Source: a virus
Taxonomy: Duplodnaviria > Heunggongvirae > Uroviricota > Caudoviricetes
IMG/VR virus record: IMGVR_UViG_3300028999_000002
Direction: 5' to 3' (one strand)
Length of the DNA: 51,967 bases
Shown: piece after piece, positions 17,954-51,967 of the stretch
Numbering within the stretch: position 1 is the first letter of the stretch
How the letters are laid out: each line of letters starts with the position of its first letter
The notes under the pieces: generated by a model
The model's input: the letters and a program-made list of their open reading frames with translations, nothing else
The model's database searches: none
What the model was told of the DNA's origin: nothing
Made by a program: the position numbers and the translations under genes

Positions 17954-18722
17954 GTGGTGTTGTCTCCTCTTCCGGCCTACGACTCTCCGCTATCTGCTGC
18001 TGATACGCCTGCTCTATCCACACCGGACGTGAGAGTCCGGCTTTTTGCCGCTCAGCAGATTCCCTGACCTGCTGGCGGAAAATGTCCTGATAATCCTCGC
18101 CCATCAGCGCCAGCTCTTTCTCATACGTGCTCAGTCCGGCCTCAATGCGCATCACTGATTCCTGGACTTCCTTGAGCCCGTCAATGGCCATTCTTCCGGC
18201 ACCAATCCACTCTGCCCGTGACCAGGCTGATCGCGCCTGATAAAAATCAAAACGTGCCCGTGGCGGACGAATAATCCCCCGAAGAAGTGCCTCTTCCAGC
18301 CAGCAGGAAAACATCTGCGTGGCCAGCCGGGCCGCAATAAATTTTCGCCGCCCCATAAAATAGCGCCACGACTCATTGGCGGAGGCGCGGGCACTTGAGT
18401 AACTGACCTTCGAGTAATCACGGGACAACTGTTCGTAGGAAACGCCAAGACCGGCGGCGATATACCGCAGCAGCGCCTGTTCAAGCGCAGAAAATCCATT
18501 GTCTGAATCCTGCGCAGTCTGTAGTTTCAGATCATCACCAGGGAAAAGGTGCGGAATTTTGACACCGCCCAGTGTCACGTTATTCGTGTCATACCAGCTG
18601 GAAAACTTCTCCAGAATATTAATAAGCGGATTATCCTTCTGCTCCTGTGGCGCGCCGGCGATATATTCAAAGGCCTTTTCGGTATCAAGTTCACTTTCAA
18701 TCGTCGCTGCATACATCGCCTT
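17943..18722 (-). pseudogene. B: portal protein B, C-terminal half (gene split by insertion of the element at 18723-29608)
   Basis: Translation matches lambda gpB from ...KAMYAATIESELD to the C-terminus; no N-terminal half upstream, replaced by non-coding satellite sequence. Confidence 0.9.
18710..18722. repeat. left copy of the 13-bp direct repeat (att core, plus-strand CATACATCGCCTT) flanking the inserted element
   Basis: Same 13-mer with one mismatch at 29609-29621, exactly at the two breakpoints of portal homology. Confidence 0.75.
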
Positions 18723-18796
18723 TATGAAAAGACAGGAAAAAATAAAATTTAAAAACAGTACATTACGAATGCTCAGACCTATCGTTTAAAGGAGTC

Positions 18797-18817
18797 GCAA
18801 TACACACTGCAATACAC
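18797..18817. repeat. two tandem GCAATACAC(A) repeats near the left end of the element
   Basis: gcaatacacactgcaatacac; same motif three times at 29434-29485 next to the integrase gene. Confidence 0.7.
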
Positions 18818-19159
18818 GATTATTTATAAGATGAGCGGCATCCGTCATAAAGCTGGTGGATGCTTTTTCTATGCATATATGCACAGTTTTAGTGGGCGTT
18901 AATGTCGATATAGGGATCCCCATATCGAGATTGGATACCTGGCTTTTTTCCGGTTAACCTTTAATCAGGCTGGTGGGCTTTACCTGTTTTGTATGAGTGG
19001 TCATCATGACCATGTCATAACAAAAACCCCATATTCGTGGTTTTTCTGTGTCGGGCTATTCTGTCGTTGCTGTGCTGATTTGGCTGGTGGGCTGAATCAT
19101 CATTACGGCGATGCAGCTATGTAGACGTTCCTGCCTCCTCAAATTGAGGATTGTGGAAG

Positions 19160-19284
19160 AATCAATGGGTTAGTCTTACTTTCCCGACATCCCCCAATGG
19201 GGGTTTTCGAAACAATCAATAGCTTAGGCTTACTTCCCCGATTTCCTGCATTGCAGGTTTTCGAAATAATCAATGGGTTAGGCC
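19160..19284. repeat. tandem ~55-bp repeats, each with a short GC hairpin followed by TTTTCGAAA
   Basis: Two full units plus a partial third; hairpins CCCCCAATGGGGG and CCTGCATTGCAGG; a third hairpin CCCCCAGTGGGGG at about 19365. Confidence 0.7.
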
Positions 19285-19531
19285 ATCGTGCAATTTTGCA
19301 CTTTGCCAGCCAGCGCAATGTCGCGTTATCAGTCCTCAGATGTGAGGGATGTAGCCAGCTTTTCCCCCAGTGGGGGATATCCAGCACCGACGGCTTAACT
19401 GTGCGTGCCAGCACAAGGTAGCCTTGAACTACTTACTGCATCCCATCTTACAGGCCGTGCCTTCCTGCTTAACTTTTTGCAATGCAACAAGTCAGCCAGC
19501 GCAATTTTGCGTTATCGGGAATATCAGCAAG

Positions 19532-19813
19532 TTACCGCCGCAATCGTTCCGGCTTCTTCCACTGGTAAGTATTTTTCGCGCTCTCCCTCCGTTGTTGAGA
19601 ACGGCGACGATATGCCAGCAACTCAAGGACTCTTGTTCGTATGTTGCGCATATCCACGCCGTTAAGCTCAATACCGTCACGGCGCATCACCTCAGCCACT
19701 ACACGCACATAATTATCTGCGGTCACGCTGTCCGGCTGCGTGGCCTGTTCGTCATGCTGCTTGCTGATTCCACAAGCACGGCGGATTAATCGCAGTATTT
19801 CGGATTCAGTCAT
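19532..19813 (-). CDS. hypothetical protein (satellite)
   Basis: 93-aa ORF downstream of the satellite Nu1-like gene, same strand; no recognisable family. Confidence 0.4.
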   Translation of the reverse strand: MTESEILRLIRRACGISKQHDEQATQPDSVTADNYVRVVAEVMRRDGIELNGVDMRNIRTRVLELLAYRRRSQQRRESAKNTYQWKKPERLRR

Positions 19814-19824
19814 AGCGTACTACG

Positions 19825-20367
19825 TTACTTATCTTTATTCGGCTGCAACTTATCCGGTACGTTTCCGGCAGTTTCCATCAGATAATCGGACAGCATCAGC
19901 GGTATGTTTTCGTCAAGTTTTGCGCATGCGTTACAGGCTCTGATAACTTCTTTTTTCAGTCCATCCAGCATAGACGGCTTCATGTCGGGAAACTTCCTTG
20001 TCATGGCAAGCGGCAGGCTGTCCATGATTGAAGAAATCTGACTCGCCAATTTTGAAAGCACGTATATACAAAACGCTGTATCAATAACGTCGCCGCGTTC
20101 GCGCTCGTTTTTAAGCTCCTGCGCCTCTGCCTGTGCTGTCAGCAATCTGATCCTGACTCGTAGGAGTTCATCATCATCAATCTCGCCTTTGTCGTCTGTA
20201 ATCTGGTTAATTGCATTGCTAACCCGATTGTCTATTACGCTGGCAACATCATAAAACGCCTCGCGGCCTTTACGTTCAACGGGAGTCACTCCCCACTTGT
20301 CGAACGCTGTCGCACTTACACGGCAGCTTTGCGCCATGTTTTTTTTGTTCATCAGGTGCGATTTCAT
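19825..20367 (-). CDS. Nu1-like terminase small subunit (satellite-encoded)
   Basis: C-terminal two-thirds align with lambda Nu1 (…RLLTAQAEAQELKNERERGDVIDTAFCIYVLSKLASQISSIMDSLPLAMTRKFPD…); N-terminal DNA-binding region divergent; start set at the ATG with a GGGGA SD. Confidence 0.8.
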   Translation of the reverse strand: MKSHLMNKKNMAQSCRVSATAFDKWGVTPVERKGREAFYDVASVIDNRVSNAINQITDDKGEIDDDELLRVRIRLLTAQAEAQELKNERERGDVIDTAFCIYVLSKLASQISSIMDSLPLAMTRKFPDMKPSMLDGLKKEVIRACNACAKLDENIPLMLSDYLMETAGNVPDKLQPNKDK

Positions 20368-20439
20368 CAATATCCCCACTTAAGTAATGTTTCAGGTTGG
20401 TGTATTGGCTTTATCTTTTCCTTTTTATTCATAGAGATA

Positions 20440-20530
20440 GAGCGAACAACAAAACCACCACCAGCACCCGAAAAAGGCTCATAAATAGCGAAAACCCGCG
20501 AGGTCGCCGCCCCGTAGCCTACCGGATCGC
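20440..20530 (-). other. satellite cos site (lambda-type cosN GGGCGGCGACCT at 20501-20512, with adjacent cosQ-like and cosB-like sequence)
   Basis: Minus strand reads GGGCGGCGACCTCGCGGGTTTTCGCTATTTATGA, matching the remembered lambda left cohesive end; directly upstream of the Nu1-like gene. Confidence 0.85.
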
Positions 20531-20568
20531 CGGAAAGGACCCGCCAGCCAGAACGGGCCCTAATTTCA

Positions 20569-20952
20569 TCAACCAATCAACTTATAGCGACCATCCCGTG
20601 CATTGCGACGTACACGCTCAATCTTGAGGCATAGCGCCGCATCTGGCTTTTTTGGGACAGGTACGCGGCAATATTCAGAAGATCGAGGAATATTGTTTAT
20701 CCAGTCGATCACTTCACTTAAATACCAGGCCTTACGCCCTTCCGTAACCTGTACGCGTTCGGGGAACTCTCCGCGAGCCTCAAGGTTTAGCAATGTGCGA
20801 CGGCTAAGGGTAGTAAGTTCCATCACCTGATTCATATCAACAAGGCGTTCACTTAAACGCATTTTGTCAGCAATAGCCTTTAATTCCTCTACTGCTGGAT
20901 CCGGATACATCATTTCGGCAATTGGCTTAAGGTCATTGTAATGATTCTGCAT
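20569..20952 (-). CDS. AlpA/excisionase-like HTH DNA-binding protein (satellite)
   Basis: C-terminal part resembles the AlpA/Xis-type HTH (…LSRRTLLNLEARGEFPERVQVTEGRKAWYLSEVIDWI…); lies between the D-like gene and cos. Confidence 0.45.
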   Translation of the reverse strand: MQNHYNDLKPIAEMMYPDPAVEELKAIADKMRLSERLVDMNQVMELTTLSRRTLLNLEARGEFPERVQVTEGRKAWYLSEVIDWINNIPRSSEYCRVPVPKKPDAALCLKIERVRRNARDGRYKLIG

Positions 20953-20963
20953 TGTATCCCCCT

Positions 20964-21305
20964 TTACACACGAGCCAGCGGCTGAACAGAAATACCTGAG
21001 CCAACAAACGCGGCAACCTTTGCCGACAGTTCTTTTACAGACTCAGGCCAGTTCAGAGCATCAACATTTAAAACACCTGTCTTATAAACCTGTGCCTGTG
21101 TTTTTTTCGCTGTGTCGATTTGTACAGCGGAAACATAAACCGCTTTACCTACGCTCGAACCATCCCATACCACCAGTGCACCTGTTGCATCTTCCTGCAT
21201 CAGTGGCGTAAATGCAGGAATTACCCCTTTATTAGCTGAAAATATCCCCAGCGTAGTCACCAGTGCTTCAGTGCCAGCCATGAGTTCAGTGTAATGAGTA
21301 GCCAT
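20964..21305 (-). CDS. head decoration protein D-like (satellite)
   Basis: 113 aa; shares TPLM…ATG.LVVWDG…YK(S/T)G…WPESV with the prophage D at 16062-16409. Confidence 0.75.
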   Translation of the reverse strand: MATHYTELMAGTEALVTTLGIFSANKGVIPAFTPLMQEDATGALVVWDGSSVGKAVYVSAVQIDTAKKTQAQVYKTGVLNVDALNWPESVKELSAKVAAFVGSGISVQPLARV

Positions 21306-21314
21306 TGCTCCCCC

Positions 21315-22361
21315 TTAGCCAATGCGAACGGTAACAAAACGATTGATGCGGGCCGGTATTGGCTGTGGTGCTGAATGTGTCTGCACATATTCAATAGCCG
21401 GATCACCAGGCACAATATAGTTTTTCGGTGCAAGTTCGGCTTTAGTCAGCCCCATTCGGATTAGCTCCGGATCCTGAATACCGCCATAGGCGACAATCCC
21501 CTGAAGAGCCGTATTGCCAAGCACCATCAAATCAGGATCAAGGAAATGTTTTTCTGTTCCGTCCTCGTCGGTATAACGCCCGCTGTAAACAACAATCGCA
21601 ACATCGCCCATATACCCTTTAAAACTCACCGAATCACCAAGGTCTTTAAGGGCCGTTTCCAGTTCGGAATTAGAACCACGACGGGTATCCAAAGCCTCTT
21701 TTATCGCTCTGAATGAACGGTATTTCTTCCATACATTACCACCCATAATGATGATATTAGTGACGCCCTCACTAAATTCTGCGTAGCTCTCAATATCATC
21801 ATTTGGATCAAAAGTTTCTTTATCCTTACCTGACCACTCAGTACCGCCAGACTGAGTGATGATATTTTGTGGTTTTATATTCCAGTCCAGCTCATAACGT
21901 TCAATACCATCGCCCTCAATGATATTTTTCCCCGTTGTGATTGCCTGAACAGCAAGCCATTCAATACGTGCACGAATAGCTTTAGCCTGATTTACAATCG
22001 CCTGTTTAACTTTAATATTACGCGCCCCAAAAGCATTGTATTGCTCAGGTGACACACCAGCAGGGCGCACAGCTAACTTATTTGGATCAATGCTGCTTTT
22101 CGGCTTCATATAACCTGGACGAATTGTTTTTGATTCGTATCCCTCATCTCGTGAAACTTTACTGCCCACCATAGGAGAGCAAAACGCCGCGATCGGGATA
22201 TTTGGATCGTCGATCGTATCAAGAATAATGTCTCTCGATTCAAACATTACCGAGCGAGTGAAAAACAAACTGGTAAACAACGCATTTAATTTTTTTTGCA
22301 CATCTTCAGCATTAGCCACCTGCACAAGCTGTGTAGGCGAATATAAATCAACCATACTCAT
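21315..22361 (-). CDS. major capsid protein E-like (satellite)
   Basis: Shares ITQSGGTEWS, LDTRRGSNSELETA, GDVAIVVYSG blocks with lambda gpE; start set at MSMVDLY by analogy with lambda MSMYTT (the next Met two codons on is equally possible). Confidence 0.85.
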   Translation of the reverse strand: MSMVDLYSPTQLVQVANAEDVQKKLNALFTSLFFTRSVMFESRDIILDTIDDPNIPIAAFCSPMVGSKVSRDEGYESKTIRPGYMKPKSSIDPNKLAVRPAGVSPEQYNAFGARNIKVKQAIVNQAKAIRARIEWLAVQAITTGKNIIEGDGIERYELDWNIKPQNIITQSGGTEWSGKDKETFDPNDDIESYAEFSEGVTNIIIMGGNVWKKYRSFRAIKEALDTRRGSNSELETALKDLGDSVSFKGYMGDVAIVVYSGRYTDEDGTEKHFLDPDLMVLGNTALQGIVAYGGIQDPELIRMGLTKAELAPKNYIVPGDPAIEYVQTHSAPQPIPARINRFVTVRIG

Positions 22362-22572
22362 CCTCTTTACATTCATTACAAATAATTGTGAATATATTCT
22401 ATTACCGATGTCTGCTATGCGAATACATGCAACCAAGTGCAATGTTGTATAAAATATGCCGTAACAACTTCAGTGCTGATAATTCGTGTTAATGTATTTA
22501 CTTCCTTTGGTCGGGATTTATGTAGCATGCCGGAAAATCTATTTTTTTCCGGCATCTTTTTGTTTGCAGAAT

Positions 22573-22995
22573 TTAAAACGGTATATTATCGCCGTACGGA
22601 TCATCATTCCCCGACTGTTGTTTTGCCCTGTTCAGTGCGTCAGTGGCCTGCCCCTGCTGGCCTTTTTTGCCGCCCGGTCGCGCCGTTCGCGCACTGATTA
22701 CGCTGTCTGCGATAACCTGCCAGCCCCGCCGAGTTTCGCCGTTCTGGCCTGTCCACTGGCTTACCTGCATGTTACCCGCCACGCTCACCAGTTCGCCTTT
22801 GTGGTGTTTTGCCAGTGCGTCGGCCTGTCTGCCAAACGCCAGGACGGATAACCACATCGTCGCCGTTCCGTCATCTGCCTGGCTGCACGGCAGGGGAACC
22901 GCCATACTCGCCATCGCCATTTGTGTCCCTTTGCTGGTGGTCTTTAACTGCGGGTCAGCCACCAGCCGCCCGTAAGCCGCTATCTGTGCTGTCAT
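22573..22995 (-). CDS. SSB-like single-stranded DNA-binding protein (satellite)
   Basis: 140 aa with an OB-fold-like N-terminus and the SSB-type acidic tail ending …DDPYGDNIPF. Confidence 0.55.
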   Translation of the reverse strand: MTAQIAAYGRLVADPQLKTTSKGTQMAMASMAVPLPCSQADDGTATMWLSVLAFGRQADALAKHHKGELVSVAGNMQVSQWTGQNGETRRGWQVIADSVISARTARPGGKKGQQGQATDALNRAKQQSGNDDPYGDNIPF

Positions 22996-23306
22996 GCTGT
23001 CTGCTCTCCGGTTTTAACATTGATGGTTGTCACCTGTTCCGCTTCGGCAATCTCCCGTTCTGTCAGCGTGGCAAAGTTTGCCGCTGCTGTGGTCATGAAT
23101 GCGCTTATCAGGTCGGGATGTTCCTTCGCGTATCCTGCCCGTGTGTGGTGGTCTATCGCTTTGATTGCCACCTTTAAGGAAAGCTCTGTCATGTCTAACG
23201 CTTTATATTTTGCCTGTGTTCTGTCTCTGCGAATTTTGGTCATTTGTCGCCCCTGATTCATGTTTTCGGCTGGCATGTTTGTTAAGTGATTTTTATGTAT
23301 GCGCAT
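22992..23306 (-). CDS. hypothetical protein (satellite)
   Basis: 104-aa ORF overlapping the SSB-like start by 4 nt; no recognisable family. Confidence 0.4.
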   Translation of the reverse strand: MRIHKNHLTNMPAENMNQGRQMTKIRRDRTQAKYKALDMTELSLKVAIKAIDHHTRAGYAKEHPDLISAFMTTAAANFATLTEREIAEAEQVTTINVKTGEQTA

Positions 23307-23329
23307 TTATTTTCACCCCCCCCTCGTTT

Positions 23330-23585
23330 AAAAAGTTTTTAGTTGTGCCTCCCCCCCTCTACCCATCTACCCGAATGCTCATCATGTCAGTAATAGCGCG
23401 GCTTTCAGCGGGTAGATAGCTTTTTGACTCCTCTACCTGCCGTCTACCCTGCTACCTGAAACTGATAAAATCAGGTAGAAGAGGTAGAGAGCTTTTATTA
23501 GCCTTCTACCTAGCCCTATACCCACTTATCATGTTGAATAATATGCGTTTATTTTGTTCAGGTAGATGGGGTAGATGGCTTTTAC
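23330..23585. repeat. iteron array (GGTAGA / TCTACC hexamers in both orientations, C-runs): putative satellite replication origin
   Basis: About 11 copies of the hexamer in 250 bp immediately 3' of the primase gene. Confidence 0.65.
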
Positions 23586-23591
23586 AAAAAA

Positions 23592-25346
23592 TTATAAAAA
23601 CGCGTCGCAATCGTCTGTTGTAATTGCGTTGGTCTGCGTTACTCCCTTAACTTTTCGCGTAATATATTCATGCCCGTAAACTTTCGCCGCTGGCTTCATG
23701 GCCTTGCTGAACTCAGCCACGTTTAGCGGTTTGCTCCTGCCCGCGTATGCCATAAACGCCAGATAGACGCGGTAAAGGCTGTTCCTGGTCGTGTACTTCA
23801 CTGAATCACCACCGCCACCCATCATCAGGCCGCGCGCTTCCTCCAGAAAATTCAGGAACTGGCAAAACTCAATAACCGGATCCGTCTGTTGCTTTATTGC
23901 CAGTGCTTCATCACCGTCACGCTGTTCCAGTAGTAAAGCCCGTGCCTTCTCAGGGTCGGTAAAGTTCGCCAGCAATCGGCGGATAATAACGGGGATTTCA
24001 GCCGCAATCTTTTCCGGTAGCTCCCTGTCTTTTTCGGCCTCACTGACGATATTGTCGAAACGGAAAATCACGCGACGACGTGCCACACCTCCGGCCCGTT
24101 CGGTGAATATCATCGGGTTGTTGTTGGTCGCCAGCACCACCGCCCTGATTACCGCCGTGAAACGCTTTTCATATTTCGGGTTAATTTCCACGGGGTCGCC
24201 GCCTGTGATTTTCTTGATGCCCGTTCCTTCGCCTGTATATTTCGGCTGGTCAGCCAGGACGATAAGACGACTCCCGACAACCTGCGCACGTCCACCAGCA
24301 TCATCAAGCGATGTCATTTCAGCGCTTACCGTGTTCTGTTTCCCTGCCAGAAGGCTGGCTATGTGTGTGAATGTACTTTTACCGCTCCCGCCGTCTCCGG
24401 TGGCCTCAATAAACATCTGCCAGTCGTACCGGTTCGCCATAATCATGTACAGCGCGGCACATATACGCATCATCTTGCGCGGGTCTTTTCCGGCTGCGTG
24501 CTCAAGCCATTTATGAAAGTTTGGCGCGTTATCGCGGATGTTCTCCCCTGGTGCTGGTGGCGTGTACTCAATGCCGTTGTGCGTGGTGATCCAGTTCTCC
24601 GGCGTGTGCGGGGAAAATTCCCCCGTTTTCAGGTCAAGCGCACCATTGGCGAACGGCAGCAAATCGCCAGACGGCTCGCCCATTGGTTCGGCAATAACTT
24701 TTAACGCTTCCACGGCGTTATTGATTACGCGCTTGCTGAAAGTGGCCCTGTGCTCTGAATAGATCGCCACCATTTCGCGGCTAAGTTCCATTGTGCTGAC
24801 CGGACACCATACCCCGCCGCGCCATACGTGAACGATTTCACTTTCAGGATGTACGCAAACGCCATCAAAGCGATCGGCAAGCAACTGCGCGCGCTCACTG
24901 TCCGCCATCTGCGAAAGTTGCGCCTTTTGCTTTACCGGAAGCTCAATGACCAGACCATCAGAAAGATTCTGGCGTTCACGGGCCAGATATTCGCGCCAGT
25001 TCTGCACCTCCTGGCCGTGCATACCCTCAGGATAAAAATTTGCATCCTGTACGCCTGCTGCCGCCAGCTTCTGACCAATCGCCTTTATCATTACAGGCGC
25101 AAGATATCCGGCCCTGTATATGCGTGCTGATTTTCGGCCTTCCGGCACAATTTGCAGATTATCCAGTTCGGATAGCTGCTGCTCCCCAAGCCACACAGGA
25201 GGCTCATTATCTCCGGCCATACGCGCATCATGTTCCTGCCATTGTTTCGCGTGTGCCCAGGCATCACTACCCGCAAAAATAATGACTTCTGTTCCTTTGT
25301 GTTTTATGCCGCGTGACTGCTGTTTTACGTTCGGTGCCAGTTTCAT
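23592..25346 (-). CDS. primase / replication initiator with P-loop NTPase (D5-like helicase) domain (satellite pri-rep)
   Basis: 584 aa with Walker A …ATGDGGSGKST… and the overall architecture of phage/satellite primase-helicases. Confidence 0.8.
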   Translation of the reverse strand: MKLAPNVKQQSRGIKHKGTEVIIFAGSDAWAHAKQWQEHDARMAGDNEPPVWLGEQQLSELDNLQIVPEGRKSARIYRAGYLAPVMIKAIGQKLAAAGVQDANFYPEGMHGQEVQNWREYLARERQNLSDGLVIELPVKQKAQLSQMADSERAQLLADRFDGVCVHPESEIVHVWRGGVWCPVSTMELSREMVAIYSEHRATFSKRVINNAVEALKVIAEPMGEPSGDLLPFANGALDLKTGEFSPHTPENWITTHNGIEYTPPAPGENIRDNAPNFHKWLEHAAGKDPRKMMRICAALYMIMANRYDWQMFIEATGDGGSGKSTFTHIASLLAGKQNTVSAEMTSLDDAGGRAQVVGSRLIVLADQPKYTGEGTGIKKITGGDPVEINPKYEKRFTAVIRAVVLATNNNPMIFTERAGGVARRRVIFRFDNIVSEAEKDRELPEKIAAEIPVIIRRLLANFTDPEKARALLLEQRDGDEALAIKQQTDPVIEFCQFLNFLEEARGLMMGGGGDSVKYTTRNSLYRVYLAFMAYAGRSKPLNVAEFSKAMKPAAKVYGHEYITRKVKGVTQTNAITTDDCDAFL

Positions 25347-25642
25347 TTTTTACCTCTGAATCCGTTAATCATGGTTTTCATTTTCTGGATATTTCCCCAC
25401 GCTTTTTCCCTGCTGATGGGCTTACTGCGGGGTGCGGCATATACCAGGGAAAAATCACGCCGGAACTGATAAACAGGCATCACGCAGTCATAGCTATACC
25501 CCTCACGGCGGTAAGTGATGCGCCGTTCTGCCACGCCTTTAATCGTTACCGTGCCGCCGTATTTATCGCGGTAAATATCGCCGTTCATAAATTCAGGTCG
25601 AGCGGGGCCGCTGGCAATAAAGCCAGAATTTTTCATTTCCAT
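25343..25642 (-). CDS. hypothetical protein (satellite early operon)
   Basis: 99-aa ORF overlapping the primase start by 4 nt. Confidence 0.45.
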   Translation of the reverse strand: MEMKNSGFIASGPARPEFMNGDIYRDKYGGTVTIKGVAERRITYRREGYSYDCVMPVYQFRRDFSLVYAAPRSKPISREKAWGNIQKMKTMINGFRGKK

Positions 25643-25659
25643 ATTATTTATTCCTCGAC

Positions 25660-25881
25660 TTAACTCGACTTATTTGATAGCAGGGCACTATTTATTGCGT
25701 CATTGAGTTTTTCTGCTGATTCATCAATAAGTGACAACAGGCCATAAGCAATATTTGCATCTTCATTGTCATTTATGCAATCAAGCCACATATTTAATAT
25801 TGCTTTTGCTGAATTATTTAAAGTTAATGAACTTTCTGCACATGCTAACAATTTAAAAAAGACTTCCCGTTCTGTATTCAT
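25660..25881 (-). CDS. hypothetical small protein (satellite early operon)
   Basis: 73-aa ORF in a tightly packed co-directional series. Confidence 0.35.
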   Translation of the reverse strand: MNTEREVFFKLLACAESSLTLNNSAKAILNMWLDCINDNEDANIAYGLLSLIDESAEKLNDAINSALLSNKSS

Positions 25882-26073
25882 TTAATCCCCCACCAGCTTA
25901 CTTTCTTCCTCAATCAAAAAACTAGCGACACTTCCCGAAAGACGCGCCAGTAGGCTCGCCAGTGCGGATATATCAGCATCTGTAATTTTGTTCGGGTATA
26001 CCTCAAGAAGGCGGCAAATAATTTCTGTCTGGTGCGCACGTTCAGCGGCTTCGTGTAATGTAATTTCCTGCAT
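25882..26073 (-). CDS. hypothetical small protein (satellite early operon)
   Basis: 63-aa ORF abutting its neighbours. Confidence 0.35.
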   Translation of the reverse strand: MQEITLHEAAERAHQTEIICRLLEVYPNKITDADISALASLLARLSGSVASFLIEEESKLVGD

Positions 26074-26258
26074 TAATGCACCTCTTTTAATTCATACACT
26101 GCTGAAATAATGACTTGTGATAAGCCATATTCTGATGATTCGCTTCTCACCGCAGCAATAGCCGTCTGAACATTAACAGCCTTCACATTCTGAGCGATAC
26201 CAATTGTGTGGCCTATTGGGTTAACAGCTCGGGCAAATACACGGAAGGTTTTAAGCAT
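26073..26258 (-). CDS. hypothetical small protein (satellite early operon, first gene)
   Basis: 61-aa ORF; stop overlaps the next start. Confidence 0.35.
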   Translation of the reverse strand: MLKTFRVFARAVNPIGHTIGIAQNVKAVNVQTAIAAVRSESSEYGLSQVIISAVYELKEVH

Positions 26259-26540
26259 GACTCACTCCCTGGCGGATTTTTGCAGCGAATACAGCAACAC
26301 AACCGGACGGGCAACGGCTACGCGCTTCGCGTTCCGTCCAGGCGGTTACGTGGATGATTTGAGATTCTCCGGCACTCAGTGCCAGAAAACGCCACACAAA
26401 GGCCGTTTGTGTGTGTACAAGGTGTGGTATATGATTTACAGCAACCATAACGGCTCCTAGTTTACGTTGTTGGTTAGACGCCCCGTATGTGTTCCCAGCA
26501 CTGCGGGGCGTTGCTCTTTGTATTTCAACAATCCTTTCGG

Positions 26541-26618
26541 TGTGTTTCATGTTATGAGCGCATGAAACACACGTCAAGGCTTTTTGTATTTCTTTTTTTG
26601 TGTATACTGAAACACACC
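26541..26618. promoter_or_regulatory. divergent promoter/operator region of the satellite with an 11-bp perfect inverted repeat (TGTGTTTCATG n9 CATGAAACACA) and a third half-site
   Basis: IR at 26541-26571; additional TGAAACACACC at about 26608; sits between divergent minus- and plus-strand gene sets. Confidence 0.55.
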
Positions 26619-26638
26619 GATGATTAGGAGTTTCAGAA

Positions 26639-26944
26639 ATGGCAACGGCTAACAAAAACGCAAAATCACAACTGACAACTGTCAGAGTCCCACTAGATGT
26701 TATGCAAGGGATGGAATCCGTTAAGCTGGACGGTGAAAGCAATGCCGGATTTATCGTAACCGCCATGCGCGGAGAAATAGCCCGCCGCCAAGCAGAAGGC
26801 AGCGGAGAAAATCCCCTTGTGTCGTCACTGGATGCCCTGGCTAAGGTCGAACAAATCGGCATCAAAGCAGCCGAGGAGATCGGGCAACTCGTCACCGTCG
26901 CGCGTGAAGAACTCCAGCGACGCAAGGTCAAAGAGCATGAATAG
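26639..26944 (+). CDS. hypothetical small protein, candidate regulator (satellite)
   Basis: 101-aa ORF with AGGAG SD, transcribed divergently from the early operon just downstream of the operator-like IR. Confidence 0.45.
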   Translation: MATANKNAKSQLTTVRVPLDVMQGMESVKLDGESNAGFIVTAMRGEIARRQAEGSGENPLVSSLDALAKVEQIGIKAAEEIGQLVTVAREELQRRKVKEHE

Positions 26945-27001
26945 CCAATATCAGCGCCATAGTTTGAGGAACGCAGGCGCATTGCTTTACAGGACAGCAC
27001 C

Positions 27002-27181
27002 ATGAGCGACACAGAATCAACCAAAACACCATCACCAACTCGTAAGAGACGACGCAAAAATATAGCGCATGAACATGAATCAGAAAGATTCGCACCTTGT
27101 TCGTTTGCTCTTGAGAAATTCCTTAAAGAGCACAGGAAAAAGCTCTCGTTGCAAACCTTGGAACGAACCAAATCTGACTGA
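27002..27181 (+). CDS. hypothetical small basic protein (satellite)
   Basis: 59-aa ORF found by manual translation (below the ORF-track cut-off); Lys/Arg-rich N-terminus. Confidence 0.25.
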   Translation: MSDTESTKTPSPTRKRRRKNIAHEHESERFAPCSFALEKFLKEHRKKLSLQTLERTKSD

Positions 27182-27277
27182 TCACATTGCCCACCAGCCG
27201 CAAATGTGGCATTGTTGGTGATGCTTTTGTTTTCCCTTGTTCCCACTGGCGACCCTTTTGCGGTCGCCTTTGTTTTG

Positions 27278-27856
27278 TCACTGAATGCGGTTACCAAAGT
27301 AAAACTCAGGCTGATATTCACGTATCAGCGTTTTTTCTTCTTCCTCCAGCTCACGCTTTTTGCGCTTACATGCCTGTAGCTCCCTCCCCTTCTCGCTGGC
27401 ACTTATTTGATATTGCTCTTTACGGCGGGAAAAATCCTGTAATGCACCCCACGGGATACCATAAGTCCCCGTTTTTCTGATACCTGGTATCACATTTCTG
27501 AATACCCAGTTACTGAAACGATGAGCAAATGTGCCAGGCGTCGTTGCTTTGCGGCTGCGGGCTATTAGTTTGTAGAAACCTGACTCAGAGATAATTCTCA
27601 TATTCTGATTTCCTCCTGGGGTGTAAGTTAAATTTACTCCCTTTTCATCATCATCAAGCATCTGCAACGCCGTACGCGAATTGGTTAGTTCCAGCGCAGC
27701 ACAAACATCTTTTGCAACAAACCACGGATCGCCGTTCAGATACACCACACGAACGTTCACACTATCAAAGCGCAGAACGACGAGATCACGAATATCGCAG
27801 AATTTTTTCACTGGACGAGCGTACCCCTTGCCCGTCACGGCAATATTTTTATTCAT
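27278..27856 (-). CDS. Bro-N domain protein (antirepressor-like)
   Basis: N-terminal …VVYLNGDPWFVAKDVCAALEL… is a typical Bro-N motif. Confidence 0.7.
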   Translation of the reverse strand: MNKNIAVTGKGYARPVKKFCDIRDLVVLRFDSVNVRVVYLNGDPWFVAKDVCAALELTNSRTALQMLDDDEKGVNLTYTPGGNQNMRIISESGFYKLIARSRKATTPGTFAHRFSNWVFRNVIPGIRKTGTYGIPWGALQDFSRRKEQYQISASEKGRELQACKRKKRELEEEEKTLIREYQPEFYFGNRIQ

Positions 27857-27912
27857 CGCGTTTTTACCTTATAGACAAAAAACCCCTCGTGATGAGGGGC
27901 ATTATTTACTGG

Positions 27913-28170
27913 TTATTGCTGTTTTGTTTTTCCAGGTTTCCACCCAGGATGCCACTCACCACGGATCCATGCCTGAACCTCTGAAAGTCGATACCCTGCA
28001 GCACGTTCACCGATCTTGATACGTCGCGGGAATTTACCTGCCTGCTCCATTTTCCAGCGTGTTGAGTTTGCCAGCGTGGTAAGTGCTATGCACTCTTTTT
28101 CACGAATGAACCGATCAATGTCCTTCATTGTGCGCAAATCGTTTTCATCAACAAGAGAATAAATTGCCAT
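27913..28170 (-). CDS. alpA: AlpA-family transcriptional regulator
   Basis: 85 aa, AlpA-type HTH (…RWKMEQAGKFPRRIKIGERAAGYRLSEVQAWI…), immediately downstream of int as in P4-like and PICI elements. Confidence 0.75.
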   Translation of the reverse strand: MAIYSLVDENDLRTMKDIDRFIREKECIALTTLANSTRWKMEQAGKFPRRIKIGERAAGYRLSEVQAWIRGEWHPGWKPGKTKQQ

Positions 28171-28171
28171 A

Positions 28172-29413
28172 TCACACCACCTCTTTATTAAGCTCGATAA
28201 CGTTGTTGTTAAATCCTGCTATCGTATTAAGGTAATTAACCCACATATTAAGCACCTCAAGTTTTTTCTTTATATGCCTGCTTTTATTGTAAACACCAGC
28301 AACCCCTTTCACTTTATGACCTAAAAGAAGTTCGACAATATAAGGATCCGCCCCCATATCATTAAGCGTAGTGGAAAATGTGCGCCTGAAATCATGTATG
28401 CACCACAAGCCATTAGTATCATGACCAAGACGCCTGCATATTCTGTTTGCAGCCCCTGTTATTGTCGCCCTTTGCAAAGCACAACCGACAACATAACCGC
28501 GATTTTTTGTTTCTGCGTAAAGATTAACGATCCATTGTTTTATTCCGTCAGGAACAGGCCTTACTATAGCCTCCTTGTTTTTGCTGTGCTCTTTTGGGAC
28601 TGTCCATACCCAGTTTTTTAAATCCCATTCGTCCCAGGTGGATAGCCTCGCCTCCTGCTGTCGGCAACCAAACACCAGGCAGATAACCATTATTCTTCGG
28701 TTATATATTGATGACAGAGTTAGCAAATTATTACCGTAAGCATAAGACCATACATCAGCGGTTTCATTGATATTAAGAACGCGATCCCTTATACCGGATG
28801 AGCGCCCGACATAACTTACGTTAATATCTCCAAAGGGATCGCACGCGATGTATTGCCTGACGCGACAAAAACGCAACGCCTGTTTGATATCAAGAAAAAT
28901 TGCACCAGACATAACAGGCGCATTTTTTTTGATCCTGTCAAAGACGGTAAGCCATGTGTGTAATTTGCACTGTTCTATAGCCATATCACCGATATAGGGG
29001 AAGATATGCTTTTCAAATCGTTTTATTAAATATTCATGCTCTTTTCTGGCTGTTGTGGCGTGATTGTCGTACCAGTAAAACAGCGCATCCCTTACGGTCA
29101 CTGGTTGCATAGTTTTTTCGGCAGCAAGTTTTATTTGCCTGCGGGGGTCCAGATTTTCAGCCAGCCATTCACGGCACTGATCACGCATGCGCCTGGCCGT
29201 TGCAAGAGACATGTCAGGATAGCGACCAAGTGTAAGCCATACCGGAGGGGATTCCCTGCCACCAAGACGATAGTAAAAAACAAAGCTGATCCCCCCAACC
29301 ATGCTTACACGCACAGACAACCCGCGCCCATCCGCTATTGTTTTTTGTTTGTCCTGCCGTTTTCCGACAAGACTCTTTAACAGTTTGTCACTGAGTTTGT
29401 TTTCAATAGCCAT
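28172..29413 (-). CDS. tyrosine integrase, P4-type (satellite)
   Basis: 413 aa; P4-family integrase N-terminal domain and C-terminal catalytic region; 5' end about 200 bp from the right junction. Confidence 0.9.
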   Translation of the reverse strand: MAIENKLSDKLLKSLVGKRQDKQKTIADGRGLSVRVSMVGGISFVFYYRLGGRESPPVWLTLGRYPDMSLATARRMRDQCREWLAENLDPRRQIKLAAEKTMQPVTVRDALFYWYDNHATTARKEHEYLIKRFEKHIFPYIGDMAIEQCKLHTWLTVFDRIKKNAPVMSGAIFLDIKQALRFCRVRQYIACDPFGDINVSYVGRSSGIRDRVLNINETADVWSYAYGNNLLTLSSIYNRRIMVICLVFGCRQQEARLSTWDEWDLKNWVWTVPKEHSKNKEAIVRPVPDGIKQWIVNLYAETKNRGYVVGCALQRATITGAANRICRRLGHDTNGLWCIHDFRRTFSTTLNDMGADPYIVELLLGHKVKGVAGVYNKSRHIKKKLEVLNMWVNYLNTIAGFNNNVIELNKEVV

Positions 29414-29433
29414 TAAAAGCCCTCAAGAGATTT

Positions 29434-29485
29434 GCAATACACACCCATCCCGATCGCCAATTTGCAATACACATTGCAATACACA
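29434..29485. repeat. three GCAATACACA repeats between the integrase start and the right att core
   Basis: gcaatacacac … gcaatacaca ttgcaatacaca; same motif as at 18797-18817. Confidence 0.7.
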
Positions 29486-29561
29486 AAACCGCGAAAAACT
29501 GGAAGGGTGATGAACGGTCATCAAAAGCATGGAAAACGACATTCCAGACGCAGCAAGGGTT

Positions 29562-30434
29562 TCAGTGGAGTTGGCGAACGATGCGGGCAACTACGGTGAG
29601 ATGATAGACATAAATCGCCTTCACTATGGCCGACTGAAGCTGTGTTGCCTGCAGGGAATCGAGCATCTTCAGCCGTTCCATGACGCTGTAAAACTGATTA
29701 GCCCCACGGGTCTGCCCGTCCTCCACCGGCTCGAAAATATGCAGCATGGCCGGACGCCCGGTGGGAAGTTCACGCGGGATCCGTTCCCATCGTCCACTAC
29801 CAGAGAACGGAAAATCATCCTCACAGATATGGTACGCGACGGCACGGCCATATCGATCGACCTCCACACCGGCCCGCAGAAAACGGTTCCCCATACCGTG
29901 TCCAGGCGTGTCCACCCGTTTCGGACTCACGGCTTTAAAACGCGTACGGAATAACTGCGTGGTTTCCGTATCCCAGACCGGCTGCACAAAGATTTCGCCG
30001 TTAAACGCATGAACGCCCACACCTTCACGGATAAATTCCGTGAACGTGCGTTTTCCTTCCACGTCGATCTCGCCAAACATCCCTTCGGCGTATTCCGACC
30101 AGGCCGCCTCCACCTCATCGACAAAGCTTTTTGCTGCGGTCTCCCGCATCCCCAGCCAGCGCCAGTTCGGACGGTAGCTGATCAGAAACATATGCCCGAC
30201 AATGTGATCCTTATGCAGAGCCACCGCATTAGCCGCTATTCCGTTATTGCGCACCAGATCATCTGCCCGGGCATTCCCCAGACGCAACGCGGGCAGCAGG
30301 GCCGCATCGGCACTCTGCGCCGGTGGCAACCACTCAGCCATTTGCCCGCCAAATCCTGCACCGCCCCCGTTGTAGCTGAGACTCTCACGAAGCGGAACGC
30401 CGTTCACATCAATCAGGACAGGCGTTCGTTTCAT
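29562..30434 (-). pseudogene. B: portal protein B, N-terminal half (ends in 15 element-derived codons after the junction)
   Basis: Translation matches lambda gpB up to …LQSAIVKA(I)Y, then diverges into element sequence and stops. Confidence 0.9.
29609..29621. repeat. right copy of the 13-bp direct repeat (att core, plus-strand CATAAATCGCCTT)
   Basis: Portal homology ends exactly here; one mismatch to the left copy. Confidence 0.75.
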
Positions 30435-30637
30435 AACCTCACTCCCAGCGGACGACGGCGACACCGGGTTGTCCCCAGTACCGACTCCGCATCATTGATC
30501 GCCCGGTTAAGCTCATCCAGAGAAGCCGCCGTATATTCAATTCTGCGACCATCTTTCTGGACAGACACCACCCGTTTACCGGTTAATAAATCAAGGCGCG
30601 CCTGACGCAGCGCCTGCAGTTCAGCGACTGTAACCAT
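30431..30637 (-). CDS. W: head-tail joining protein W
   Basis: 68 aa, lambda gpW-like (…LLTGKRVVSVQKDGRRIEYTA…). Confidence 0.9.
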   Translation of the reverse strand: MVTVAELQALRQARLDLLTGKRVVSVQKDGRRIEYTAASLDELNRAINDAESVLGTTRCRRRPLGVRL

Positions 30638-32549
30638 TCACTCCTCCGGACAGCTTCGCTGCCAGTTCTTTAAGGGTTGGCCGGGTCGTCTCTTCTTCCC
30701 GGGATTTTGCCAGTACAGCCAGATCAAGCTGCCAGCGTTGCACGGACACACGTAATGCCGCGTAGGCATACACCAGGCAGTCCAGCGCTTCGTTACGCCG
30801 CTTTTTGTTATCCCACAGCAGACGCATCTTTCCTTTTTCCCACTTCTCCACAAGCTCTTCCGCGACCAGTTGCTGCGCCTCTGTCTGCGAAAAAATCTCC
30901 GGATCATCAGGAAAACGGATAGCATACGACGTGGCTTCATCCACAGGCGTGGGATCGGCTTTCATACGGGCATAGAGAATTTCTTTTGCGGTGTCCGTCC
31001 CCACTTCACACAGATACACGCCCCGCTGATTGCGGGTTTTTGGCATGGTGATCACCGGCTTGCCATAGACAGATGCGCCTTTTACCGGCAGCACCCGGAA
31101 AACACCGTGTTTTTTTGACCTCTGATAAACGATTTCGCCATCGATCCCCCCGATGTCCCAGCAGACACGGGAAATGGTCATTTCGGTTCCGTCTGCATGG
31201 CGGTATTTTTTGTTGATCGCCGCATCCACACGTAACAGCGTCTCTTCCTCATCGGGACGCCCCATAATGATGATTTTATCCACCAGAAAGGCTTCCTCTC
31301 CCGGAGCCCATCCCCAGACATACATCTCAAAACGGTTTCGCTGCGAGTCAATGCCCGCCGTCAGATAAACCACCCGGGCAGGCACCGCCGCCGTGTAACG
31401 CACAACCTTATCCATCAGCACCTGGTGATCGAGTTTTTCGCCCACAGCCTCTTCCCAGGTCTCGCCCAGCGTGGTGTTCACAAAGGTTTTCAGGCCGTTG
31501 GGATCTTTCAGTGCATCCAGCCAGTCATAGACAATCTGTACCCAGGTGGTGAACGGACTGTACGCCGTCCAGATATGGAAAGTGATGGAGCGCGGCGGCG
31601 GAATTTCATCACCCCGGGCGCTGAAAAACATCAGGCCGTCACGGGTCCACATGCCCGTGTTTTCACAGATCCACCGCCCGTTACTCTGGTCAAGCTCAGA
31701 CTGATGGATCACACAGCCATGATGCTCACAAAGGTAGAAAACACTTTCTGGCTTATTCTTCTCCCACTTAAGACCGAAAGGCGAGGCATCATCGCCAAAT
31801 TTCAGATACTGCTCCTCCCCACAGTGCGGACAGGGCACATAAAAACGCATGAAGTGTGCCGACTCGTTAGCGGCTTTTTCGATCTGGCAGGAGCCTTTGA
31901 TTTTAGGCGTCGAGCCGCGAATGGATTTTGGCCATACAGAGCCCTCAATACGTTTATCCCCCAGCAGGGTTGGCGAACCCTCTTTTTCAACATCCGGTTC
32001 GAACGAGGAAAGCTCGTCATAACAGACCACATCCACGGATTTTTCACGGTAGTTTTTTGCTGCCGCACCACCCAGACACCAGAACCCCACACCGGAGGAA
32101 AAACGCTTCAGGGTGAGCGTATTATCGCGGTGTTTTCTTCCGAACCATGGAGCCAGCTCCAGCAATGCAGGAACATCCCTTATCGTTGGCTCAACATGAG
32201 ATTTCATAAAATCTTCAGCAGCTGAGTCCGTGGGCTGAAAAAGAAGGCTGTTGCGTGATTTATGCTCAATAAAATAAGCCTCCACTCCCAGCAACATCTT
32301 TGTATAACCAACACGGGCAGATTTAATCAGGTTAACCGTGCGAATCAGATCGTTGCCCATACAGTTCATGATGCCAACCTGAAACGGCAGTGTTTCCCAT
32401 CGCCCCGGGGTATAAGACGACTCTTTAGGAAGGTAATAATGTTTATTGGCCCACTGAACTGTCGTCAGTGGAACAGGAATAATGAGAGATAAAAGCCCTG
32501 TAGCTATCGCACCGGCTGCATTAGCTGCCTTCTGCGCGTCTGAAATCAT
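30621..32549 (-). CDS. A: terminase large subunit A
   Basis: Lambda gpA-like throughout (…[22 protein letters not shown]…); start set at the internal Met giving a lambda-like overlap with Nu1. Confidence 0.95.
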
Positions 32550-33067
32550 CGATCCACCCGCCCACGTTTTCACCGGCCTTAGCTGCAACATTGGAGGCTT
32601 TCGCGATTTCAGTTTTCACCACATCAAGGTGTGATGGTGAAATGTCCGGATATTTACGCTGTAATGTCAACGGCACACGCACAAGTATCCCCGAAATCTC
32701 CTGTGCCACACGTTGCAGAATGAAGGTAAACAGTTCAGTTTCCAGCACTACTCCGTCTTCACGGGCATTTTTCAGTTCCTGCGCATCTGCCTGCGCTTTT
32801 GTGAGCCGGTAGCGTTCATAGTCAATGGTGCCGGGTTGTAAATCTGACTCCGCTGCCGCACGCAAATCGTCCAGTTCTTTGCGGAGCTTTTCGTTTTCGA
32901 TATCAGTTTCCCTCTGCGCATACCACTGAATTGCCATGGCAGTATCAAATACAGATTCAATGCCCTTACTACCTTTGGAGGCGCAAGGGAGTCCCTGACT
33001 GCCAGCGTTCAATCGTCCGCGGGTCCACGTTGAAAATTTCGGCAAGCCTCTTTTTATTAACCTTCAT
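32521..33067 (-). pseudogene. Nu1: terminase small subunit Nu1, frameshifted in this sequence
   Basis: ATG at 33067 opens [32 protein letters not shown]-stop (lambda Nu1 N-terminus); homology continues in another frame (…[39 protein letters not shown]…) to the stop at 32521. Confidence 0.8.
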
Positions 33068-33199
33068 GAAAACAACCCATTATCAAATACAAGGCCCGAC
33101 ATGAAAACGCCAGAAAAAGGCATTTTCGGACACTTTCATGTCGGACCTTTACGGATGCAATATTAAAAAAAAACAAAAAGTTATATTCGAGAAGTACCG

Positions 33200-33290
33200 A
33201 CACGATTTTCCCTGAAAAATTTTCATAAATAGTGAAAAACCGCGAGGTCGCCGCCCCGTAACCTGTTGGATCGACGGAAAGGACCCGAAA
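33200..33290 (-). other. prophage cos site (cosN GGGCGGCGACCT at 33245-33256)
   Basis: Minus strand reads GGGGCGGCGACCTCGCGGTTTTTCACTATTTATGAAAATTTT, upstream of Nu1 as in lambda. Confidence 0.85.
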
Positions 33291-34346: not shown

Positions 34347-34826
34347 TTTTATTCCTACGGGTCTTATTCTGACAATATATCCTGTGTTCCAGACTGCCAC
34401 ATCACCACATCCTGTGCCATTATCTGACTCACATTACATACATCGCATCGGGATACAGTAGTAGCACTTTCTGTAATACAGCTTCCTGTTTCTTCCACCA
34501 TCGCACCGGGATAAACCCGCGAATCATTAACGCGGTAAAAACCCGGTGTGCATCGTTTTTAATTATTCCCGCACACTCACGCAGAAGGAATTCCCCGTCG
34601 GGCTACGGTCATGGTTAATGCGGGAATACGGCGACGATACAGCGCAGCTAAAAGGGTAATGGACGGATAGACCGGTTTATTTCATTCCACAGGATTCTGA
34701 GTGTCCCCAACTTCCTCCAATAGTCTGAGCCCACCTGTGTAGTTTTAATTTTCATCAATCCATTTAACTATCGTTTAATTGTTGTCACATAGGATTCTGC
34801 CGTTTTTAACAATGCAGGATAATAAG

Positions 34827-35120
34827 ATGAAAAAAATGTTGTTTTCTGCCGCTCTGGCAATGCTTATTACAGGATGTGCTCAACAGACGTTTACTGTTGG
34901 AAACAAACCGACAGCAGTAACACCAAAGGAAACCATCACCCATCATTTCTTCGTTTCGGGAATTGGACAGCAGAAAACTGTTGATGCAGCCAAAATTTGT
35001 GGCGGCGCAGAAAATGTTGTTAAAACAGAAACCCAGCAAACATTCGTAAATGGATTGCTCGGTTTTATTACTTTAGGCATTTATACTCCGCTGGAAGCGC
35101 GTGTGTATTGCTCACAATAA
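34827..35120 (+). CDS. bor: Bor lipoprotein (serum-resistance, Iss homolog)
   Basis: Near-identical to lambda Bor (MKKML…ITGCAQQTFTV…EARVYCSQ). Confidence 0.9.
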   Translation: MKKMLFSAALAMLITGCAQQTFTVGNKPTAVTPKETITHHFFVSGIGQQKTVDAAKICGGAENVVKTETQQTFVNGLLGFITLGIYTPLEARVYCSQ

Positions 35121-35151
35121 TTGCATGAGTTGCCCATCGATATGGGCAGCT

Positions 35152-37883: not shown

Positions 37884-37885
37884 TA

Positions 37886-51814: not shown

Positions 51815-51967
51815 AAAACCTCCTTTGGTCAGAGTATACATCCTTATTTCTGGCTCTTCAATTCTATTGTCAAAAACTTTTACAAAGTCTGCATCAGTAA
51901 AACTGATGGCGCATTTTAAAATTAAAATCAATATGTCCATATCAAACGTTATATTTGTTATTTTTTG

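Follow-up and report, generated by a model that had tools for sequence, protein, structure and literature searches.

The stretch of DNA analysed here (51,967 nucleotides, hereafter the window) holds a lambda-like E. coli prophage, which we call the helper, and a satellite with a terminase gene of its own. An earlier reading made from the sequence alone had claimed that nu1, the gene for the small terminase subunit (TerS) of the prophage, is frameshifted while the satellite carries an intact Nu1 homolog. It offered two explanations, either a packaging-defective helper that depends on another TerS or a sequencing error. In lambda nu1 is essential for packaging; gpNu1 contacts the R elements of cosB through its N-terminal domain, associates with itself through its central part and uses its C-terminal ~40 residues to bind gpA. 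The locus raises the question whether the frameshift exists in the DNA of the organism, and what it would mean for the packaging of helper and satellite.

The late operon of the helper runs in the order lysis genes, bor/iss, a TonB-like gene, cos, nu1 (broken), terL, W, the 5' part of the portal gene, a 10.9-kb insert, the 3' part of the portal gene, C, D, E, FI, FII, Z, U, V, G, T, H, M, L, K, I, J and fibres. EC28 has the identical late arrangement with nu1 intact. The nu1 gene (33067-32521) lies directly downstream of cos (cosN at 33245-33256) and overlaps the start of terL at 32549. The following features were assigned to the packaging region of the helper:

33068..33256, minus strand: helper cos, with the cosN core GGGCGGCGACCT at 33245-33256
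32969..33067, minus strand: helper nu1/terS, 5' fragment, in which the native codons 1-24 (the helix-turn-helix portion of the DNA-binding domain) are followed by 8 codons out of frame and by TAG (translation, Pfam, tblastn)
32996..32999, minus strand: deletion site, CAG TC AGG against CAG TCTC AGG in the intact gene (alignment)
32521..33012, minus strand: nu1, 3' part, read in the shifted frame; it matches residues 24-182 of the intact TerS WP_000867568 at 100% identity (Pfam, tblastn)
30621..32549, minus strand: helper terL, intact, for a gpA-like protein of 642 aa; the first 29 nt overlap the 3' end of nu1

Helper cosB comprises four TGTC(C/G)G elements (33202, 33144 inverted, 33132 and 33101) around an AT-rich spacer, a layout resembling R3-I1-R2-R1, and the spacer shows a poly-T length polymorphism at 33173. 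The same cos-nu1-A order and nu1-terL overlap are found for gpNu1 of the lambda/phage-21 type (PF07471; structures 1J9I, 6HN7 chain B and 7LWR), and the intact allele of helper nu1 is the 182-aa 'P21 prophage-derived terminase small subunit' (TERS_ECOL6). In contrast to gpNu1, the open reading frame in the window is split after codon 24, which uncouples the DNA-binding domain from the oligomerisation and TerL-binding part.

When the minus strand of the window was translated from the ATG at 33067, 24 native residues were followed by GTPLRLQR and a TAG at 32971-32969. Nu1 homology picked up again in another frame and ended at the stop at 32521-32523. A tblastn search with the intact 182-aa TerS gave the same division and bore out the claimed frameshift, frame -1 (33067-32987) holding residues 1-28 and frame -2 (33000-32524) holding residues 24-182, the latter at 100% identity. 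Both parts were recognised by Pfam as Phage_Nu1 (PF07471), the 32-aa fragment with E=3e-06 over profile positions 1-27 and an additional HTH_28 match, and the 174-aa open reading frame in the shifted frame with E=5.5e-70 over profile positions 21-163. A single continuous Nu1 reading frame of ~181 aa is absent; the frames part at 32996-32999. Because its reading frame is split in this way, we classified helper nu1 as a pseudogene of PF07471 and not as a functional member of the family.

Alignment with UTI89 and EC28 located the difference to the base. Intact nu1 reads TGGCAGTCTCAGGGA and the window reads TGGCAGTCAGGGA, exactly two bases fewer. On the minus strand TGG CAG TC- -AG GGA in the window stands against TGG CAG TCT CAG GGA in the intact alleles, that is, one TC of a TCTC repeat is gone after codon 24 and the surviving TC is found at 32998-32997. 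The net change of -2 read earlier from the sequence is in agreement with this, and comparison with related prophages, which that reading had proposed as a check, showed nu1 of UTI89 and EC28 to be intact and two bases longer. Over the whole region the nu1 deletion was the only coding indel relative to EC28, and the complete genomes closest to an 801-base query covered 803 bases. In the 3' part of nu1 the gene caller begins a 163-aa product at the TTG at 33012-33010, and an internal ATG (32937-32935) would yield a protein of 138 aa that lacks the DNA-binding domain. In the intact helper TerS, residues 1-54 are 100% identical to the solved DNA-binding domain structure 7LWR, and homology to lambda TerS in 6HN7 extends over residues 1-98; 1J9I was matched as well. 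From these alignments it follows that the break after residue 24 falls within the winged-helix domain.

Occurrence of the deleted allele

A 91-base query across the deletion site was searched against 5,426 complete E. coli genomes. It matched at 734 places in 584 genomes, and all 734 were two bases longer than the window, i.e. in-frame, leaving the deleted allele in 0 of the 584 matching genomes. The 35-base deletion junction had no exact match in species-representative genomes, JGI metagenome contigs or viral contigs. Likewise, neither the 174-aa product (first TTG) nor the 32-aa product had an exact entry in a collection of 15 billion proteins.

Two further products were followed and rejected as tracers of the lesion. 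The 138-aa product of the internal ATG was present on 168 contigs, where it was due to contig-edge truncations, another allele of the DNA-binding domain or a 10-N gap, and not to the deletion. Nu1 calls of 169 aa on two contigs represented a different natural allele of the DNA-binding domain, with no lesion. Among the exact-product look-ups only the 163-aa product from the second TTG, which can be encoded by the deleted allele only, traced this allele, and it was detected on 11-14 contigs (Logan, ENA). Three contigs were retrieved: two k127 contigs of 39.6 kb and 35 kb (ERR525857, ERR525859; both runs of the human-gut metagenome project PRJEB6456) and an 830-kb scaffold (SAMEA2580076). All three contained the exact deletion junction and none the intact junction. 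The ERR525859 contig was 100% identical to the window over 8.3 kb, while in the ERR525857 contig and the SAMEA2580076 scaffold all differences from it were confined to the Rz-bor repeat. The window and all three contigs were identical between 34909 and 26521 (about 8.4 kb). The assemblies carrying the junction were MEGAHIT-style k127 contigs, a scaffold-level assembly and Logan; the contigs are independent as to libraries and assemblers, not as to lineages, as they belong to one project and may represent one strain in related samples.

The window itself is a scaffold with two runs of 10 N. The run at 16876-16885 replaces 8 real bases and artificially breaks gene C, and the run at 39365-39374 is a pure insertion between adjacent bases that artificially breaks gene Q. 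Compared over ~38 kb with two near-identical complete genomes (coding fraction 0.85), the window contained only three other indels:

33173: +T in a poly-T tract, non-coding
23323: +G in a poly-G tract, non-coding
50542: -G, non-coding

Two of these three were tested and occur identically in other complete genomes. An indel-prone assembly was therefore rejected as the source of the nu1 change, the remaining indels being natural polymorphisms outside coding DNA. In a tblastn comparison with 68 reference proteins of EC28 and S87, the 60+ other genes of prophage and satellite were full-length and free of stops, with the exceptions of nu1, the portal gene split by the satellite, and C and Q cut by the N runs. 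By this comparison nu1 is the only genuine lesion of the element, which fits a recent event.

Sequencing error, the second explanation offered earlier, would mean that nu1 is intact in the organism and that two bases were lost in a draft assembly. The two 10-N spacers that break C and Q, and the absence of the allele from the 584 matching complete genomes and three DNA collections, are what such an artefact would produce. However, the same junction was obtained in separate runs and by different assemblers (the k127 contigs, the scaffold and Logan), the deletion site is not a homopolymer, and the other indels of this assembly are natural non-coding polymorphisms shared with other genomes; we consider an artefact very improbable. 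Because the same junction came from separate libraries and different assemblers, the deletion is taken to belong to the genome of an E. coli lineage living naturally in the gut. No sign of selection or wide spread of the deleted allele was seen among the 5,426 complete E. coli genomes. An allele can thus be missing from thousands of complete genomes without being an artefact, and it was the exact-product look-ups in read-derived assemblies that decided between the two in this case.

The embedded satellite, its TerS and its cos

The insert in the portal gene belongs to the helper-embedded PICIs (HE-PICIs). The following features were assigned to the element and to the two parts of the portal gene:

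18723..29621, minus strand: helper-embedded PICI, 10,899 bp
29562..30434, minus strand: 5' part of the portal gene, a 290-aa product with an 18-aa PICI-derived tail; it ends at the attL core AAGGCGAT (29614-29621)
28172-29413: PICI int (P4-type integrase)
27913-28170: PICI alpA
27278-27856: PICI bro (Bro-N)
23592-25346: PICI primase (D5_N/DUF5906)
22573-22995: PICI ssb
21315-22355: PICI gpE-like capsid gene
20964-21305: PICI gpD-like decoration gene
20569-20952: PICI second AlpA-like gene
20380..20512, minus strand: PICI cos; the cosN core at 20501-20512 is nearly the same as that of the helper
19825..20379, minus strand: PICI terS (19825-20367), full-length and Nu1-family; 180 aa from the RefSeq start at 20367 (Pfam Phage_Nu1 E=3.5e-24)
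17943..18722, minus strand: 3' part of the portal gene, from the attR core AAGGCGAT (18715-18722)

The PICI is inserted at portal codon ~273, with its key genes all co-oriented with the late operon. Excision in silico restored a 530-aa portal protein that is identical to the UTI89 portal at 530 of 530 residues. The Pfam matches of the element came in the order Phage_integrase, Phage_AlpA, Bro-N, D5_N/DUF5906, Phage_cap_E, HDPD and Phage_Nu1. A doubled motif, TGTATTGCA-n-TGTATTGC (doubled tgTGTATTGCantgTGTATTGCa), was found near both ends, at about 29485-29463 and about 18817-18796.

HE-PICIs were described by Tommasini, Mageeney & Williams 2023 (PMC10111431), and the supplement of that study contains 11-kb E. 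coli elements at the site B:Phage_portal_2:241 with the identity block aaggcgat. The satellite in the window has in common with these the size of 11 kb, the place in the portal gene, the co-orientation, the order int-alpA-bro-primase-late genes, the 8-bp aaggcgat block and the doubled tgTGTATTGCantgTGTATTGCa near both ends. Late-gene insertion, co-orientation, attL/attR block, restoration of the target by excision, doubled motif and gene order were all found as for HE-PICIs, and on these sequence features the satellite is a member of the described group at B:Phage_portal_2:241. It is present in at least 51-53 complete E. coli genomes. The N-terminal portal fragment specific to the HE-PICI junction was accompanied by an intact Nu1 in all contigs among the matches listed. 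The model element 11capE is inserted in the capsid gene E and lacks terS (PMC10111431), whereas the PICI in the window sits in gene B and carries a full-length Nu1-type terS together with capsid and decoration homologs. The present system differs from that of 11capE also in that the helper is terS-null. The authors were unable to detect virions even for a helper whose genes were intact (PMC10111431); the activity of helpers in this family is uncertain anyway.

The intact Nu1 homolog attributed to the satellite was confirmed in the region 19825-20379. It is 34% identical to helper Nu1 overall and 45% identical over the C-terminal half, the alignment reaching residue 176 of 182. At its N-terminus the helix-turn-helix pattern is kept and the residues have diverged from those of the helper. 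A search of the PDB with the PICI TerS gave no match to any Nu1 DNA-binding domain or RppC chain at E<=1. When the regions upstream of terS in helper and PICI were aligned, the alignment ended ~30 bases beyond cosN; the PICI cosB is unrelated to the helper cosB and has none of the TGTC(C/G)G elements, of which the helper has four. From the sequence, and by analogy with known systems, the PICI TerS likely pairs with the helper TerL yet recognises the PICI cos only.

One of the closest comparisons for packaging is EcCICFT073, which like the present satellite is a PICI of the cos type from E. coli that has capsid and decoration homologs, a phage-like cosN and its own cosB (PMC6739421). Its Rpp, a protein of 144-153 aa, has to form a heterodimer with the N-terminal domain of the helper TerS (Fillol-Salom et al. 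2019, PMC6739421), i.e. a mimic of the TerS DNA-binding domain without the TerL-binding region (PMC6739421). In contrast to Rpp, the protein in the window has 180 aa, the C-terminal half of Nu1 and no RppC sequence match. An Rpp-like satellite protein was rejected on the grounds of length (180-184 aa), of the alignment with Nu1 up to residue 176 of 182 and of the missing RppC match at E<=1. Because Rpp needs the N-terminal domain of the helper TerS, a PICI of the Rpp type would be crippled by a helper nu1 null; a PICI of the TerS type may, by analogy, be unaffected.

Predicted consequences of the lesion for helper and satellite

We regard the nu1 change as very probably a genuine, recent and lineage-private 2-bp deletion, most simply caused by replication slippage in the TCTC repeat, which makes helper nu1 a null allele and would abolish packaging of the helper. 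Translation from the native ATG ends after 32 residues, inside the winged-helix domain that recognises cosB, and no protein would join the DNA-binding domain to the C-terminal part needed for oligomerisation and TerL binding. The helper terminase would therefore be unable to recognise its own cos, and the prophage would neither package its genome nor form plaques. A break inside the TerS DNA-binding domain thus argues for the packaging-defective helper proposed earlier. Upon induction and excision of the PICI the portal gene would be restored, and capsids and tails would presumably still be assembled. PICI DNA might then, by analogy, be packaged by PICI TerS with helper TerL, giving rise to satellite particles and no helper phage. 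The helper is most likely unable to package itself and possibly still able to package the PICI.

Reinitiation at the ATG at 32937 could give a 138-aa fragment, judged from the sequence to lack the DNA-binding domain. Late transcription is Q-antiterminated, and therefore transcriptional polarity on terL is predicted to be small. Loss of translational coupling through nu1 could lower TerL according to the same kind of prediction; terL has its own weak GGTGGA-like ribosome-binding site.

A functional TerS might in principle still be made from the split gene, by a programmed +1 ribosomal frameshift or by reinitiation. The zero frame ends with CAA AGG TAG, placing a rare AGG codon before the stop, and the ATG at 32937 follows 31 nt past the nu1 stop. 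But homologs are in-frame at all 734 places in the 584 genomes, so a shift site is not conserved, frameshifting at AGG would still put 8 wrong residues into the DNA-binding domain, and the internal ATG has no Shine-Dalgarno sequence and gives a 138-aa product without that domain; such recoding is hardly credible. Alternatively the satellite TerS could replace the broken one and keep the helper phage viable, which comes close to the suggestion that the helper depends on another TerS. It would be in line with the 45% identity to helper Nu1 over the C-terminal half, where assembly and TerL binding reside, and with the nearly identical cosN cores of helper and PICI. Opposed to this, the N-terminal DNA-binding domains have diverged, the satellite one having no PDB match to a Nu1 DNA-binding domain at E<=1, the alignment fails just beyond cosN, and the TGTC(C/G)G elements number four in the helper cosB and zero in that of the PICI. 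As lambdoid phages discriminate between genomes by cosB/TerS specificity (PMC6739421), we hold a rescue of the helper to be very doubtful; cosN is common to both elements and cosB is different, and because of this the PICI TerS probably cannot rescue the helper.

Loss of the helper TerS could also be adaptive for the PICI or the host and be maintained as such, the helper then serving as a packaging chassis that does not compete. The other late genes are all intact despite the nu1 null, the allele was found in more than one gut sample, and engineered terS-deleted helpers behave likewise (PMC11399120). Yet a single lineage with identical flanks is known, from which a recent event follows, and after a recent event intact neighbours are expected by default; moreover all other sampled helpers with this HE-PICI keep the intact 182-aa Nu1. 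Selected domestication is therefore quite improbable in our view. Somewhat less so, though still unlikely, is the claim that a helper lacking the small terminase only, next to an intact PICI, is stably present in a gut lineage of E. coli, and that induction yields satellite particles only.

If this satellite-only reading were true, the pair would be nature's equivalent of the helpers engineered to lack terS, and would mark the beginning of a prophage's domestication into a packaging chassis for the parasite that it carries. For pac SaPIs, satellite TerS together with helper TerL directs satellite-specific packaging (PMC6739421), and helper lysogens deleted for terS/terL release payload particles and little wild-type phage (PMC11399120). 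Those systems are Gram-positive and package by headful (pac), and the deletions were made in the laboratory, whereas the window represents an E. coli cos system with a spontaneous natural allele, known from sequence alone.

The lesion taken by itself is an ordinary loss-of-function mutation of a textbook gene, in a class of composite elements described in 2023, and no new kind of system. As a natural terS-null allele of the helper in an otherwise intact helper/HE-PICI pair it provides a ready-made mutant, which can be used to test whether a Nu1-type TerS of a Gram-negative PICI works without helper TerS, unlike PICIs of the Rpp type. The same allele might reveal whether decay in HE-PICI helpers begins with the functions that the satellite can replace.

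The join between the late and early regions

The satellite's place inside the portal gene and its membership of the HE-PICI class, the 10-N scaffold spacers and a repeat-ambiguous link between late and early genes had gone unnoticed in the sequence-only reading. EC28 is the match for the late region of the window. For the early and lysis region (35.6-52 kb), where intE/xisE adjoin icd and a DarT/macro-domain pair, the match is S87, at 99.9%. The switch from EC28 to S87 lies in the Rz-bor segment, which is common to both prophage types at ~97.5% identity. It was located at about 34710-34740 in the window and between 35115 and 35227 in the ERR525857 contig. The SAMEA2580076 scaffold has no switch and runs on into an EC28/DLP12-like lysis region, and a further ten contigs that share the Iss variant of the window each lead into a packaging module of the HK97/P27 type. 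The late-early join may, from these sequences, be an assembly path through a repeat of two co-resident prophages, and it is uncertain whether the late region belongs to the prophage at icd. The ambiguity leaves nu1 unaffected, because nu1 lies in unique sequence that is identical in all assemblies.

The variant of the W protein in the window occurs in 26,058 blocks and is too common to help in tracing the strain; the Iss variant, which stood in another context, did not help either. A 413-aa open reading frame at the right end was considered as a second integrase and rejected; it encodes a macro-domain (DarG-like) protein adjoining icd.

Satellite in the portal gene and its small terminase

Two features of the satellite, a PICI embedded in the portal gene of the helper prophage, were located in the window:

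18715-29621: PICI insert including the att cores; att core AAGGCGAT
19825-20512: PICI terS with its own cos; full-length Nu1-family TerS

A doubled motif, TGTATTGC, was found close to each end of the insert. After in-silico excision of the PICI, the portal was identical to that of the complete E. coli genome UTI89 (530/530). The PICI class inserted at this position is already known (PMC10111431). The PICI TerS belongs to the Nu1 family over its full length, but its N-terminal domain was diverged. The PICI cos adjoins terS and has its cosN in common with the helper, while the two cosB sequences are unrelated. In the published model of this helper-embedded class, 11capE, terS is absent, whereas it is present in the PICI described here. 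EcCICFT073 likewise differs from this PICI and its full-length terS in having none. From the lack of terS in 11capE and EcCICFT073 we concluded that a TerS-type of Gram-negative PICI coexists with kinds that are Rpp-type (using the redirecting protein) or terS-less.

Further genes of the PICI encode an Icd-like cell-division inhibitor (26251-26448) and an SSB of its own (22573-22995); it also contains a YlcI/YnfO-family gene (26639-26944), which is read from the opposite strand. Additionally, a poly-G length polymorphism was observed at 23323, in the intergenic region 3' of the PICI primase gene, which is possibly the ori region; the length in the window was found in only 3 of the 51 complete genomes with the same PICI.

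Helper cosB and exchange of packaging specificity

33101-33202: helper cosB; four TGTC(C/G)G elements (one inverted) flanking an AT-rich poly-T tract

The layout of the helper cosB resembles R3-I1-R2-R1 of lambda. The length of its poly-T tract varies among E. coli prophages; for a 96-base query with the length seen in the window, 34 complete genomes had a match of 99% identity or more, and at least six matched it at 100%.

Two retrieved contigs with 169-aa Nu1 calls (L017 and L022, positions 1046-1200) had a wholly different Nu1 N-terminal domain and upstream cosB region, and the same C-terminal part. In the prophages with the exchanged domain terL, W and portal were identical. A differing Nu1 N-terminus and cosB on a shared C-terminal part is a natural modular exchange of packaging specificity.

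Possible assembly path and scaffold spacers

The switch from an early/lysis region like that of genome S87 to a late region like that of genome EC28 falls inside a repeat of about 0.9 kb in Rz-bor/iss (34710-35613). Its point differs between the window and two other assemblies carrying the nu1 deletion (L039 and L040), and in other contigs bearing the same Iss variant an HK97/P27-type module follows. The join of the icd-site early region to the lambda-like late region may therefore be an assembly path and not a real mosaic.

16876-16885: 10-N scaffold spacer at an internal repeat within protease gene C; stands for 8 real bases
39365-39374: 10-N scaffold spacer in antiterminator gene Q; pure insertion between adjacent bases

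Both spacers make artificial frame breaks, and C and Q could be mistaken for pseudogenes.

Cargo and flanking genes of the prophage

36708-39100, + strand: two cargo genes on the opposite strand, between Q and holin
50699-51940, - strand: macro-domain (DarG-like) protein, adjoining the prophage attachment site

The cargo genes encode a 391-aa protein of the NA37 nucleoid-associated type and a 404-aa protein of unassigned function. Both are kept in S87 and several other strains; a moron or a defence pair are possible readings of the two genes. In S87 the macro-domain gene is directly followed, on the side towards icd, by a gene for a DarT ADP-ribosyltransferase, which sits between the two at a position beyond the right end of the window.
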